Source: Vibrio vulnificus CMCP6
Lineage (GTDB): Bacteria; Pseudomonadota; Gammaproteobacteria; Enterobacterales; Vibrionaceae
Assembly: GCF_000039765.1 (NCBI RefSeq)
Contig: NC_004459.3
Coordinates: 2,451,127 to 2,483,126, forward strand
Direction: 5' to 3'
DNA length: 32,000 nucleotides
The notes beneath the pieces were generated by a model. It was not told where the DNA came from, ran no database searches, and worked only from the letters and a program-made list of their open reading frames with translations. The position numbers and the translations under genes are program-made. Shown piece by piece: positions 6,319-22,100 of the stretch (positions are counted from its first letter, which is position 1; every line of letters begins with the position of its first letter).

Positions 6319-6654
6319 TTAATCATGTAAAATCAGTTGGTTGCATCTTTTCTTGGCTTTCTAATTCTGGCTTTGTCGGCAAGTTAACTTCAGTGGTCGC
6401 TGTTTTCTGGACTCCAATTCTTTGGCGCTAAAAATTCAGAGAGTTGCCTCATTAAAATGTGGTGTTTGGGTGAGGTGAGTGCAGCTTGTTCAGTTTCAAC
6501 GTTAGAGCTTCAGCTTTCGTTTTTCACGTAAAGACTCAATGTGAATTCAATCAATTTTATGAGTTAATTCAGTTTTTTAGCCTATGGTTTTGGTGTGCAA
6601 AGGTAAGTCGAGTTAAGCTCTTGGTATCGTAAAACTTAACCCTTTGAGTCTTAA
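6319..6654 (+). mobile_element. gene-less cassette body, family B copy 1
   Basis: homologous to 12363-12708; 5' half related to family A, 3' half distinct. Confidence 0.8.
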
Positions 6655-6781
6655 ACATAACAAGGCGTTCAAGAGGGATTCGTGCCGCGTGGCATTTTTG
6701 GTATGCGGTGAGTTTTGGTGGTGAAAGTGGTCTGCGGAAACTTGGTTTAGGCGGCACTCACCCCTTAACGCAGCGTTATAA
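6655..6781 (+). repeat. attC site 12 (subtype III, 127 bp)
   Basis: R'' ACATAAC / R' GTTATAA. Confidence 0.9.
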
Positions 6782-6801
6782 ATTTTTTAAAGGAGTCATG
6801 A

Positions 6802-7695
6802 GTGGCAAGCTCTGGTACATATTATTTAGGTCGAGTATTGAAACTTGGTACTCTCGATCAAGAAAAGTTAATGAATGCAATCAAAGAGCCTGTTTCCTTA
6901 TCTTATAGAGGTTCATCTTGGACGTTCATTGACGTCCAAGAAGTTAAGGGTAACGGGGAGCATTATATTTTCGGTCGCCTAAGCAAATACAAGCCGTTAG
7001 GTGAGGTTACTGTCGTAGATACACATCGGAGAACAGAAGAAACACAAATTGAACCTAACTTGAAAGTTGCCTCTAGCCCTTTTGTATATATCCCGTCCCA
7101 CTCGGGTATTGCGTTTCTTAATGTGTATAATCACATTGAACAAAAAGCTTTTGTTAATCGCTTTTGTTCTATTATCGAGGAAACTTATCAACGCTTTTTC
7201 GTTGATTGTGACATTGAGTTAGTCTCAGACTTACGCTCTTTTGCTGCGAAAGTATCATCATTGGATGGTATCTATCATGTTAACGCGAAAATATCTCCTC
7301 CAAACCCAATGTTCGGCTGTCTTTGGGCAGAGTTAAAGGACTACTTAATCAAACGAAACACTGATCGCATGACCGTCGTCGAAGATGCCCCAGAAAGTGA
7401 GCCGCTAAATACAGATCTGCCATATCACATAGAAAAAGCGGCAAACCAGACAGCAGATGAGCAATATGTGTCAGAAGAACCTCTTCCGATCGGGGACGCT
7501 GCAATACTTATGGCAGCAGACGGCTATGGTCATGGAACAGTTAAAGGGAAAAGAGATAATGAAGTTATAACTATTAAAACATCCGAGACAGTAAAGAACT
7601 TTTCCTTCGACAAAAATCCAGAGCCTGATGCTCTTTATCGTAAAGCTCTTGGAATATTTGACGAAATCAAAGAAAAAAGGCACCTGGGTCACTGA
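6802..7695 (+). CDS. hypothetical soluble protein, 297 aa (gene 1 of a two-gene cassette)
   Basis: GTG start 6 nt after SD aggag (6791-6795); no TM segments; motif Y-x-P-x10-Y-N-H at nt 7087-7134; family not recognised. Confidence 0.75.
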   Translation: MASSGTYYLGRVLKLGTLDQEKLMNAIKEPVSLSYRGSSWTFIDVQEVKGNGEHYIFGRLSKYKPLGEVTVVDTHRRTEETQIEPNLKVASSPFVYIPSHSGIAFLNVYNHIEQKAFVNRFCSIIEETYQRFFVDCDIELVSDLRSFAAKVSSLDGIYHVNAKISPPNPMFGCLWAELKDYLIKRNTDRMTVVEDAPESEPLNTDLPYHIEKAANQTADEQYVSEEPLPIGDAAILMAADGYGHGTVKGKRDNEVITIKTSETVKNFSFDKNPEPDALYRKALGIFDEIKEKRHLGH

Positions 7696-8165
7696 TGAAT
7701 CGAATTCTAGATATTTTTCGCTTTACTATTATTTCTCCGGAGTTTGTTGTTATTCTTCTGACGGTTGCAATGACATATAGTTATCCGGAAGTATTTGTAC
7801 TTATAGGTGGAAAACTTAAAGGCAATACAGAACTATGGAAGTTTATCCCCTCATTGCCTGTTATCTTCACTGGCGTGACCTTTAAAGTGGCTCAAAAAGT
7901 TCATGCACCTTTGGAGAATACGTCCAACAAGCAACTTTACGAATGGAGCTCATTCAATAAGGTTTCTGATCGTATAATGGCGTCTTATTTGATTTGTATA
8001 CTTTGTTGTGCCGCTAGTTTTACAATTTGGTTCTTCATGTCAGAGTTGAGTGAACTAATGTTAGGTTCAATATTATTGAGTTCAATCCTAATCTCTGGGT
8101 TAACTACGTTCCAAATTATCTTGGCAGCTCAAAAAATCAGGCAAGTCATAGAGCAATACACATAA
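7695..8165 (+). CDS. small 4-TM membrane protein, 156 aa (gene 2 of a two-gene cassette)
   Basis: ATG overlaps the upstream TGA (TGATG at 7693-7697); four hydrophobic helices by eye. Confidence 0.75.
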   Translation: MNRILDIFRFTIISPEFVVILLTVAMTYSYPEVFVLIGGKLKGNTELWKFIPSLPVIFTGVTFKVAQKVHAPLENTSNKQLYEWSSFNKVSDRIMASYLICILCCAASFTIWFFMSELSELMLGSILLSSILISGLTTFQIILAAQKIRQVIEQYT

Positions 8166-8168
8166 AAT

Positions 8169-8265
8169 TTATAACAAAGCATTTAAGAGTGATTCGCAAC
8201 GCTCGGCATTTTCGCTTCGCTCAAGTATAGCCGAGCGCAGCTCACACCTTAATGCGGCGTTATAT
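8169..8265 (+). repeat. attC site 13 (short subtype S, 97 bp)
   Basis: R'' TTATAAC / R' GTTATAT; near-copy of attC 2 and 31. Confidence 0.9.
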
Positions 8266-8289
8266 GCCTGAAATGAGAACTCCAAAATA

Positions 8290-8715
8290 ATGTCAGAAGA
8301 ACATATGCTTAGAGCTTTGGAAGTTTCTAAGTTTGCTTTGCCAAATTGCCTACCTAATCCACCAGTTGGTTGTGTGTTAGTTAAAGAAGGCAGTATTGTA
8401 GCCGAGGGCTTTACCCAAAAAATTGGCGGTAACCATGCAGAAGTGCAAGCGCTTGAAGCGTACTCAGGCGATATGGACAGTGTCACAGCCTACGTAACAT
8501 TAGAGCCCTGTTCATTTATTGGTAGAACACCTGCCTGTGCTGCGACTCTCGTAAAGTCGGGCATTAAACATGTCGTTGTTTCAATACTTGACCCAGATCC
8601 ACGCAATGGTGGGCGCGGGATTCAAATTCTTGAGCAAGCCGGCGTACAAGTAGATATTGGGCTATGTAGCAGTCAGGTTAGCGCTTTTTTAGAGCCATAT
8701 CTGGGAAAGTCGTAG
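8290..8715 (+). CDS. stand-alone RibD-like (CDA-fold) pyrimidine deaminase domain, 141 aa
   Basis: NPPVGCVLV, zinc motifs HAE and EPCSFIGRTPAC, DPDPRNGGRG; collinear with the N-terminal deaminase domain of RibD; no reductase domain. Confidence 0.85.
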   Translation: MSEEHMLRALEVSKFALPNCLPNPPVGCVLVKEGSIVAEGFTQKIGGNHAEVQALEAYSGDMDSVTAYVTLEPCSFIGRTPACAATLVKSGIKHVVVSILDPDPRNGGRGIQILEQAGVQVDIGLCSSQVSAFLEPYLGKS

Positions 8716-20352: not shown

Positions 20353-20493
20353 ATGAGAGTCTTAATTTTATTGTTGGCTACATTGTTTGTGAGTAATTCT
20401 GTCCTAGCTCATGGCGGAGGGTGTCGTAAGAGTTCACCACCTGGTCAATGTTGCCACAAAGACAATAGTACAGGCACAGTACATTGCCACTAG
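20353..20493 (+). CDS. small secreted Cys/His-rich peptide, 46 aa (absent from the ORF track)
   Basis: SD aagga (20342-20346); MRVLILLLATLFVSNSVLA then HGGGCRKSSPPGQCCHKDNSTGTVHCH (4 Cys, 4 His in 27 aa); only plausible ORF in this cassette. Confidence 0.6.
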   Translation: MRVLILLLATLFVSNSVLAHGGGCRKSSPPGQCCHKDNSTGTVHCH

Positions 20494-20505: not shown

Positions 20506-20632
20506 ATATAACAAGGCATTTAAGAGGGATTCAAAACGCGTGGCATTTGCGGTTTGAATCCATTTTTGTGTGTACTTTGTTCAATTTTAAATTGGGGGTA
20601 AGCGTTTTTCACCCCTTAATGCGGCGTTAGCT
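20506..20632 (+). repeat. attC site 33 (divergent subtype IV, 127 bp)
   Basis: R'' ATATAAC / R' GTTAGCT. Confidence 0.85.
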
Positions 20633-20672
20633 AACCAACGTAAGAATAATAATATGTAGTAAGGAAATATAG

Positions 20673-21548
20673 ATGGCAGGTAATTTTCGAGTTCATGCAT
20701 TTGGTATTGTTGGACTAAACGACAAAACTGATGACTTAGAGGACGTTTTAAACGATATACTCGCTGATGATATCGAGGACCGTGTTAGAACAATTGGTCA
20801 ACACGAGATTCGAGTAGAACATATTGAGAAGGTTGACGGTGTATGGCATCTAGACTTTGTGAAATTTCGTGATGTTCATGGACCTGGTAAAGGTTCGAGA
20901 AAGACAAAGGTTTTAGGCTTTGACTTTAAGGCGGGTGAAGTTTTTTGTGAGGAAACTGCATTAATGTACTGCCCTAAGCGCAGTTACATTTTACTTCAGT
21001 ATAACCATCATGGGGTTCGGTATTCTGCTATAGAGGATTACTTCAGTGTTTATAGTGGGAACCCTGATAATCAATATGAGCTTCAAGCCAAGTACGATGA
21101 TGATGTGGATCGCAAGTTTACATCTAGGAAAGCGACTAAGTCGCTAACCTTGGCAATCGATCCTAGGCTGTTAAGCGATAAGGATCGAGACTCAAAGACA
21201 GCATTAGGCAGTGCAATTGAGTTGGGTGACAAGTCAAATGCGTCGAAGATTGAAATTACTATCACAGCAGGCAGAGAGAAGAAGCGTTTTCTTTCAAAGT
21301 TTATCGACGATACTGCGACAAAAATGAAAAAACTTGCAGAGAAAAATCCTGATGCAGTAGGTAAATTGCGTGCAGGAGTTGTTAGCTCGGGCGTCGATGA
21401 AAAACTGCAAGTTTTAGACTTAATTGAAGAGCGTTTGTGCCGAAACTTTACTGATATCCCTGTAGGCAACGATAAACGTTGGCCCAGAGATGCGAGATAT
21501 AAAGCTCTCGAAAGGGCACGACGCGGTTGGAAAAAAATAATGGGTTAA
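20673..21548 (+). CDS. hypothetical soluble protein, 291 aa (gene 1 of a two-gene cassette)
   Basis: SD aagga (20661-20665); no TM segments; motif Y-x-P-x8-Y-N-H (residues 99-112); family not recognised. Confidence 0.8.
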   Translation: MAGNFRVHAFGIVGLNDKTDDLEDVLNDILADDIEDRVRTIGQHEIRVEHIEKVDGVWHLDFVKFRDVHGPGKGSRKTKVLGFDFKAGEVFCEETALMYCPKRSYILLQYNHHGVRYSAIEDYFSVYSGNPDNQYELQAKYDDDVDRKFTSRKATKSLTLAIDPRLLSDKDRDSKTALGSAIELGDKSNASKIEITITAGREKKRFLSKFIDDTATKMKKLAEKNPDAVGKLRAGVVSSGVDEKLQVLDLIEERLCRNFTDIPVGNDKRWPRDARYKALERARRGWKKIMG

Positions 21549-21553
21549 TTTTT

Positions 21554-21976
21554 ATGCACTTATATGTTGAAAAATCATATCCATATGTTTTGGCTTCAGG
21601 TGCCAGCTTTGCGTGGTTCTATTTCAAAATGTCGTTTCCAGTAGGGAACGACATTTTGTCAGCATCTCTAACAATTGGAGCCATACTTACTGGCTTTTTA
21701 GCTACAGCAAAAACATTGCTTATGACTTTAGATACGCCTGTAATGAATAGGATCCGAAGTACAGCTTATGCTCAAGATTTAGCCTCTTACCTTGGTGAAG
21801 CTATTTGGCTATGCTTTGGCTTTTGTGTCTTAGCAATGGTTGGCTACTTTTGTAGTACTAGTAAACTTTGGTACGGGGTTGTTTGGATTTTTATTTCAAT
21901 TGCAGCGTCATTTGCTTTCATTAGGGTGACGACGATCATGCTCAAAATCATTAAGCACCAACCAAGCAAAAGTTAG
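21554..21976 (+). CDS. small 4-TM membrane protein, ~140 aa (gene 2; alternative TTG start at 21527 overlapping gene 1)
   Basis: ATG 6 nt after the upstream stop; four hydrophobic helices by eye; basic C-terminal tail. Confidence 0.75.
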   Translation: MHLYVEKSYPYVLASGASFAWFYFKMSFPVGNDILSASLTIGAILTGFLATAKTLLMTLDTPVMNRIRSTAYAQDLASYLGEAIWLCFGFCVLAMVGYFCSTSKLWYGVVWIFISIAASFAFIRVTTIMLKIIKHQPSKS

Positions 21977-22100
21977 CTAACAAACAATTCAAGAGTGATT
22001 CAGCACGCTTGGCATTTTTGGTTTGGGTTCGGTTCAGTGTTTACGGTGTTCAAATGAAATGTCGTGGCAGCGTGCTTCACACCTTAATTGGGCGTTAGCT
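21975..22100 (+). repeat. attC site 34 (divergent subtype IV, 126 bp)
   Basis: R'' AGCTAAC / R' GTTAGCT. Confidence 0.85.

Follow-up and report, generated by a model that had tools for sequence, protein, structure and literature searches.

A candidate RexAB-type phage-exclusion module packaged as a mobile cassette of the Vibrio vulnificus chromosomal integron

The chromosomal integron of Vibrio vulnificus CMCP6 contains, within a 32,000-nucleotide (nt) stretch of contig NC_004459.3 (positions 2,451,127 to 2,483,126; hereafter the window, to which all coordinates refer), a two-gene cassette that probably serves as a mobile RexAB-type two-component system for abortive infection or phage exclusion, a reading to which we give a probability of about 0.7. 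Gene 1 (6802..7695, + strand) encodes a 297-amino-acid (aa) cytoplasmic protein that is assigned to the DUF4747 family and modelled with a RexA fold, and gene 2 (7695..8165, + strand), which starts with ATG, encodes a 156-aa predicted inner-membrane protein that is proposed to be a RexB-like effector. An initial annotation of the window had described a soluble 297-aa protein and a 156-aa protein with four transmembrane segments, joined by a one-base overlap of stop and start codons and enclosed between the 12th and 13th attC sites; both open reading frames (ORFs), the overlap, the four segments and the bounding sites are as it had them. The architecture is of the already known RexAB type, and an integron cassette of this kind has already been validated experimentally as Sucellos.

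The GTG start of gene 1 is adopted because its homologues align from residue 1 (consensus MAxxGTYYxGRV) and a Shine–Dalgarno sequence, AAAGGAG, lies 6 nt before it in the cassette leader. Some database entries for the protein are 274 aa long, begin at an internal methionine and are probably annotated too short. A word-index search returned 563 homologues, and an exhaustive profile search with the family yielded 484 cluster representatives at 50% identity. Direct hmmscan searches of Pfam, NCBIfam, PADLOC and PHROGs with the gene 1 and gene 2 proteins yielded no meaningful match, 29 gene 1 homologues scanned singly against the local Pfam library gave noise only, and the family profile found no match among PDB sequences at E<=10. 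The local library holds version PF15931.10 of the DUF4747 model and the precomputed table holds PF15931.11; the latter matches the exact gene 1 protein of the window and most of its homologues at E<=1e-5. The local scan was blank because PF15931.10 misses gene 1 and its close relatives, and this version effect means that the negative result is no evidence of a protein without a family. Distant relatives retrieved with the family profile A1 (E about 1e-26) match PF15931.10 itself, P0288 with 44.9 bits and P0275 with 31.5 bits against a cut-off of 27 bits. Because of the newer model and this transitive link, gene 1 is classified by its profile matches as a member of DUF4747 (PF15931).

The initial annotation had allowed for the possibility that gene 1 would fall into a known non-defence family; the profile and model evidence instead gives the defence-associated DUF4747 and a RexA fold. 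The actinobacteriophage literature ties DUF4747 to lambda RexA, Sbash gp30, CarolAnn gp44 and Butters gp30; each of these proteins has a partner with four transmembrane segments and belongs to a demonstrated defence system. A 2026 paper names ‘DUF4747/CarolAnn’ as an immune operon type. Across 40 sequences with identities down to 22% (alignment A3), the residues N168, P169, D240, G241, Y242, G243 and G249 are invariant, and most of them lie in two family motifs, PPNP (166-169) and AADGYG (238-243).

The AlphaFold2 model of gene 1, built on 29 homologues (pLDDT 88, pTM 0.85), points to the same class of proteins. A Foldseek search of the PDB with this model returns lambda RexA (8TWQ) as the top match, with an E value of 7.9e-5 and a probability of 1.00, and as the sole match below 1e-3; the next matches, Chl4/CENP-N and RdgC, are the structural relatives that have been given for RexA itself (PMC11077077). 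The order of secondary structure elements likewise fits RexA, with a split beta-rich globular domain and a dimerisation domain of four strands and four helices. By this model, gene 1 belongs to the RexA-fold structural class that comprises RexA, RdgC and Chl4/CENP-N. The BFVD collection adds five matches to the gene 1 model that surpass the one to lambda RexA (E 1e-12 to 2e-7, TM-scores of up to 0.58); they are uncharacterised proteins, 277-322 aa in length, encoded on siphovirus and myovirus contigs of metagenomic origin.

Gene 2 has 19 homologues by word-index search, and the synteny survey described below added many more. Hydropathy averaged over 53 family members shows four hydrophobic segments at about residues 10-31, 52-64 (the weaker one), 95-116 and 120-142. 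In the same 53 members, the N-terminus, the central loop (residues 64-93) and the C-terminus are rich in lysine and arginine, and the two other loops are acidic; this charge pattern leads to the prediction of a four-helix protein with both termini in the cytoplasm (N-in/C-in). The predicted topology places the central loop, about 30 aa long, in the cytoplasm, and conservation is densest in this loop: 11 of the 24 invariant columns of alignment A2 (K68, P72, L73, E74, S77, N78, L81, Y82, W84, D92 and R93) fall within residues 68-93. NCBI names gene 2 a ‘DUF2975 domain-containing protein’; hmmscan at E<=1 failed to reproduce this, and the name is not adopted here.

The junction between the two genes reads GGTCAC TGATG AAT (the TGATG at 7693..7697, + strand), so that the stop codon TGA (7693-7695) and the start codon ATG (7695-7697) share the A at 7695. 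No strong Shine–Dalgarno sequence was found before the ATG of gene 2. The coupled translation that the initial annotation read from this overlap gains support from its conservation in related loci. A synteny scan restricted to one genome per species gave 59 loci in Gamma-, Beta-, Alpha- and Deltaproteobacteria, Verrucomicrobia, Lentisphaerae, Planctomycetota and Bacteroidota, with further representatives in Nitrospira, Bdellovibrionota, Calditrichaeota, Elusimicrobia and Latescibacterota. In 55 of the 59, gene 1 is immediately followed by an ORF with a match to the gene 2 profile (E 4e-82 to 2e-4), and at 40 of these 55 junctions the genes overlap by 1 nt (n=21) or 4 nt (n=19), with gaps of 1-18 nt at ten more. 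The four loci without a called gene 2 comprise one that ends at a contig edge (L040), one in which the contig end cuts the locus and the N-terminus of gene 2 is present (L036), and two decayed copies: in Pseudomonas guineae (L053) gene 2 is frameshifted and gene 1 is intact, and in Desulfobulbus sp. (L065) both genes are truncated and a Vsr-like endonuclease ORF is inserted after the N-terminus of gene 2. All 58 assessable loci thus have gene 2, or what is left of it, next to gene 1. The initial annotation had reckoned with a pair that is never syntenic elsewhere; the survey found it essentially everywhere that gene 1 occurs, and the pairing is obligate. The identity of gene 2 declines in step with that of gene 1, and the distant DUF4747 protein P0288 (279 aa) shares a 1-nt overlap with a 161-aa hydrophobic protein that lies beyond the reach of the gene 2 profile. 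In published Rex systems a disturbed A:B ratio leads to loss of function (PMC12894663), and this sensitivity provides a functional rationale for the coupling of gene 1 and gene 2.

The pair is carried by a well-delimited integron cassette. Where chance would produce 1.15 matches to the attC pattern, a search of the window found 30, and a relaxed scan for R' ends gave 47 sites, every one on the + strand. The gene pair lies between the 12th and the 13th attC site, whose R' ends are at 6779 and 8263. The 12th site (6658..6779, + strand, identified by pattern searches) is the property of the preceding cassette; crossover at G|TTAT within its R' core (GTTAT, 6775-6779, + strand) puts the start of the cassette at about 6776. 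The bottom strand of this site, taken as single-stranded DNA, pairs its R'' with its R', and its fold is no better than that of shuffled sequences (z -1.2). The cassette’s own site is the 13th (8172..8263, + strand), a short variant of 92 nt whose R' core GTTAT (8259-8263, + strand) marks the cassette end and whose single-stranded fold reaches -19.8 kcal/mol (z -3.1). With these limits (about 6776 and about 8263), the whole cassette measures roughly 1.48 kb. Between the cassette start and gene 1 lies a leader of 26 nt (6776..6801, + strand), TTATAAATTTTTTAAAGGAGTCATGA, in which a separate promoter would not fit, and no sigma-70-like site was found on the + strand of 6400-8400. The cassette thus has to rely for its expression on upstream read-through, or on Pc after shuffling to the first position of an array.

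As expected of an integron gene cassette, the attC-bounded unit lies in the orientation of the array and recurs in different arrays. Six further Vibrio assemblies have the identical 297-aa protein in a different cassette neighbourhood, and in one of them (L071, GCA_001608945.1) the cassette comes first after the integron integrase gene intI (L071 3797-4759 and 5001-6364), the position of strongest Pc expression and most recent capture. Nucleotide homology to this copy covers 6772-8263, in agreement with the limits set by the core sites, and homology to copies in other integrons stops at 8262-8265. The unit is therefore mobile as a cassette. Exact matches for all four proteins of this cassette and of a second one in the window, considered below, occur in V. 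vulnificus entries, for example QBN14270.1, QBN14256.1 and QBN14255.1.

The typical repeats of the array are 121-124 nt long, compared with 92 nt for the site at 8172-8263; a near-identical short site occurs at 602-693 of the window, and further Vibrio genomes have copies with 95% identity on different cassettes (L075 6904-6996 and L076 2931-3023). This distribution hints at a common foreign origin for the cassettes that bear it.

The closest functional counterpart of the V. vulnificus cassette, judged by its published description, would be Sucellos (SclA/SclB), a RexAB-like two-gene cassette in the sedentary chromosomal integron of V. cholerae N16961, which protects against phages, requires both genes and leaves infected cells dead (bioRxiv 10.1101/2024.07.02.601686). 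In both cases, a RexAB-like pair sits within one cassette of a sedentary chromosomal integron, and the soluble protein is RexA-like by predicted structure, is missed by the RexA Pfam model and has a membrane partner. The two differ in that Sucellos has its own promoter and an insertion-sequence insertion, whereas the present cassette has a 26-nt leader and no promoter-like site; moreover, Sucellos homologues are reported often in Salmonella prophages, whereas the family of gene 1 and gene 2 gave no phage or plasmid matches. No very high contig count, such as we would infer for a protein of the heavily sequenced pandemic lineage of V. cholerae, appears among the best 120 of the 563 gene 1 matches or among the listed matches of the second cassette.

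Lambda RexA and RexB share with the present pair the order of a soluble protein of about 280-300 aa followed by a protein of about 145-155 aa with four transmembrane segments, and RexB and gene 2 (the latter by prediction) have the same N-in/C-in topology with a central cytoplasmic loop. The lambda rex genes, however, are 15 nt apart and are expressed with cI from a prophage, whereas the present genes overlap by 1 nt in an integron cassette, and the motifs PPNP and AADGYG are specific to the gene 1 family. In the Sbash gp30/gp31, CarolAnn gp44/gp43 and Butters gp30/gp31 systems, all of which provide demonstrated heterotypic phage defence, a DUF4747-linked soluble protein is again combined with a four-transmembrane-segment partner, and the genes overlap or abut; these systems differ in being prophage-encoded and in occurring in Actinobacteria. 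CarolAnn gp44 (370 aa) has no local Pfam match and no profile similarity to the gene 1 family, and the published DUF4747 link of these actinobacteriophage proteins is a weak HHpred match. Sbash gp31 has invariant positions in its central loop, where substitutions abolish defence, and the conservation of the gene 2 loop parallels this. The Pseudomonas putida system RexABpp (PP_5643/PP_5644), compared here by its description, is likewise gammaproteobacterial and combines a DNA-binding protein of RexA fold with a four-transmembrane-segment effector that damages the membrane; stoichiometry matters to it, and overexpression of A damages the membrane in a B-dependent manner (PMC12894663). It differs from the present pair in being prophage-borne and in having BLAST relatives limited to pseudomonads. 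Like these systems, the V. vulnificus pair consists of a soluble gene directly upstream of a gene for a four-transmembrane-segment protein within the range of about 140-180 aa, in one operon.

By analogy with lambda RexAB, Sbash, CarolAnn, P. putida RexABpp and Sucellos, the gene 1 protein would act as a dimeric cytoplasmic sensor whose cue may be a phage protein or a DNA–protein intermediate of replication or recombination. The activated sensor would dock on the conserved cytoplasmic loop of gene 2, which would then oligomerise into a channel or pore in the inner membrane. The infected cell, its membrane potential or integrity lost, would stop growing before it could yield phage progeny. The 1-nt overlap would couple translation and thereby fix the A:B ratio.

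Several observations weigh against the phage-exclusion reading. The RexA models PF15969 (Pfam), PADLOC RexA and PHROG 12654 give no gene 1 match at E<=1, although they score the lambda RexA positive control at 1e-97, 9e-110 and 6e-163, respectively, and hhalign of the gene 1 family profile gives a probability of 0.1-0.4% against lambda RexA and of 0.3% against CarolAnn gp44. The RexB models of Pfam (PF15968) and PADLOC, which score the lambda control strongly, do not match gene 2; the 53-member gene 2 family reaches a probability of 1.2% against RexB by hhalign, and the hydropathy profile of gene 2 is weak at its second segment. As it gives no match in these profile tests, the cassette is placed outside the RexA and RexB sequence families, PF15968 included. 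The systems of lambda, Sbash, CarolAnn, Butters and P. putida P1 are prophage-encoded and expressed from the lysogen, and the present pair sits in an integron cassette; tblastn of the family against 50,697 phage records and 72,556 plasmids gave no match, and IMG/VR gave one weak match on a viral contig, unlike what is seen for classical prophage-borne Rex systems. The anti-phage function, the sensor and effector roles, DNA binding, channel formation and contact between A and B are parts of the proposal that we infer by analogy. On the other side, the RexA, RexB and CarolAnn gp44 templates are single sequences and insensitive, so that the null hhalign results leave room for remote homology, and the published Rex-like systems likewise lack detectable RexB homology. 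The BFVD matches mean that phage-borne structural cousins of gene 1 exist despite the empty tblastn search of phage records.

Outside integrons, the neighbours of the pair include nSTAND3/Mrr_cat as well as HEPN with AAA_15/DUF4435, and among 128 flanking ORFs in 48 genomes the most recurrent families are specificity subunits of type I restriction–modification systems, DUF4917, AAA_21, PemK, N6 methylases, AAA_15 and Mrr_cat. These neighbour counts, which carry no background control and are to that extent a further point of caution, suggest a defence-island setting. In Achromobacter xylosoxidans (L001-L004), the site of the pair is constant, with a gene of the beta-lactamase family on one side and 3-hydroxyacyl-CoA dehydrogenase genes on the other, an arrangement that recurs on 134 contigs, among metabolic genes, with no integron and no obvious defence island. 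Gene 2 is uncalled in two of these four A. xylosoxidans records, and the space for it is present.

The main rival reading is a reversal of roles of the Butters type, in which the toxic antiviral activity would reside in the soluble RexA-fold protein, held in check by the membrane protein until infection. Butters gp30, with its weak DUF4747 match, is the main antagonist in its system and the four-transmembrane-segment gp31 modulates it; the invariant PPNP, AADGYG and G249 of gene 1 could mark an active or ligand site rather than a plain DNA clamp, and tight translational coupling would suit a pair of toxin and restrainer as well. Against this reversal, four of the five Rex-like systems (PMC12894663), and Sucellos besides, need both genes and have the membrane protein as effector. 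The conservation of the gene 2 loop across phyla and the retention of gene 2 in every assessable locus fit an effector at least equally well, and an unrestrained toxin is not expected to tolerate the loss of its restrainer, which is the situation of the Pseudomonas guineae copy (L053) with its frameshifted gene 2 and intact gene 1. We consider the reversal unlikely.

A role outside immunity, either as a membrane-linked module for DNA transactions or maintenance (for example an RdgC/RexA-like DNA-binding protein acting on recombination or on the SOS or lysogeny switch of the host) or as an addiction pair that stabilises the array, is rather improbable and less likely than phage exclusion. RexA acts without RexB on the lambda lysis–lysogeny switch and binds DNA non-specifically, and its structural relative RdgC is a modulator of recombination (PMC11077077). 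Chromosomal integrons are rich in toxin–antitoxin cassettes, ParE and PemK occur among the neighbours, and the A. xylosoxidans pair lies among metabolic genes outside a defence island. However, strict pairing with a small protein of four transmembrane segments is the hallmark of Rex-type exclusion, and every tested example is anti-phage; in other phyla the flanking genes are often restriction–modification, abortive-infection or nucleoside triphosphatase (NTPase) defence genes, and no regulator or recombinase is linked to the gene pair. That the two ORFs are unrelated neighbours, or one of them spurious, and the overlap meaningless has nothing in its favour beyond the general scarcity of multi-gene cassettes, and this very improbable reading is excluded by the synteny survey, since conserved homologues exist for each protein (563 and 19 word-index matches; 484 representative clusters), all 58 assessable loci, from many phyla, show the adjacency and 40 of 55 keep the overlap.

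A second cassette of similar build occurs in the same window at 20627-22098 (~1.47 kb). Its soluble gene (20673-21548) encodes a protein of ~291 aa that hmmscan assigns to DUF6731 (E 3e-22) and that also weakly matches the PADLOC candidate PDC-M67A; the membrane protein gene (21527/21554-21976, depending on a TTG or an ATG start) encodes 140-149 aa. The initial annotation had claimed the same blueprint for the two cassettes and had proposed a comparison of their proteins by hidden Markov model (HMM) profiles. At the level of architecture and predicted fold, this blueprint holds: the cassettes are of nearly equal size (~1.47 and ~1.48 kb), each has a small membrane protein after a soluble protein whose best structural match is RexA, and the AlphaFold2 model of the sister soluble protein (pLDDT 78) finds 8TWQ RexA as its best PDB match (E 7.5e-5, TM-scores 0.39/0.41), followed by CENP-N and RdgC, with a secondary-structure order that mirrors gene 1. 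At the level of sequence, the blueprint fails. The HMM–HMM comparison by hhalign gave a probability of 0.4% for the two soluble families (40 and 21 sequences) and of 0.2% for the two membrane proteins, that is, no detectable sequence relationship, and BLASTP between the proteins of the two cassettes found nothing. The junction of the sister pair also differs, with a 22-nt overlap (TTG start) or a 5-nt gap (ATG start) compared with the 1-nt overlap of gene 1 and gene 2, and its membrane protein has only three clear peaks in the hydropathy scan. The RexA match may be the first functional clue for DUF6731 and PDC-M67A.

Some further features of the window are recorded here. The V. vulnificus CMCP6 entry AAO10801.1, which is the sister soluble protein, is annotated as ‘Coenzyme F420-dependent N5,N10-methylene tetrahydromethanopterin reductase’ and looks misannotated. 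Just upstream of the sister cassette, a 46-aa ORF (20353-20493; HGGGCRKSSPPGQCCHKDNSTGTVHCH) stands alone in a small cassette, with what appears by eye to be a signal-peptide-like N-terminus and a tail rich in cysteine and histidine. The cassette that follows the gene 1 and gene 2 pair (8290-8715) encodes a 141-aa protein with an HAE...PCxxC motif, which by eye has the look of a CMP/dCMP or riboflavin-type deaminase.

A bolder extension of these findings, which we put forward tentatively, would see in the family a large chromosomal, non-prophage Rex-like clade of 484 clusters in at least 10 phyla with a co-diverged partner of four transmembrane segments, in which PPNP and AADGYG might mark an activation hinge or a ligand or catalytic site instead of the non-specific DNA clamp put forward for RexA, and would see in the integron a stockpile of several RexA-fold sensors that answer to different triggers and work through different membrane effectors. 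If this stockpiling is real, it would provide DUF6731 with its first functional assignment. The modelled RexA fold of DUF6731 proteins in itself offers this further family of unknown function a testable role.

If the phage-exclusion reading is correct, the finding extends a known class, leaves the current picture of bacterial immunity unchanged and would not surprise a specialist. A widespread chromosomal branch would join the small set of Rex-like systems, of which a 2026 paper counts five, with Sucellos as an additional one. The family is well suited to the study of how RexA-type proteins activate their RexB-type partners, being compact and confidently modelled, with hundreds of co-varying natural pairs, and the sharp conservation of PPNP and AADGYG in A and of the cytoplasmic loop in B would aid such a study. 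For the vibrios themselves, it would mean that their integrons circulate Rex-type abortive-infection modules as promoterless cassettes that are activated by shuffling.

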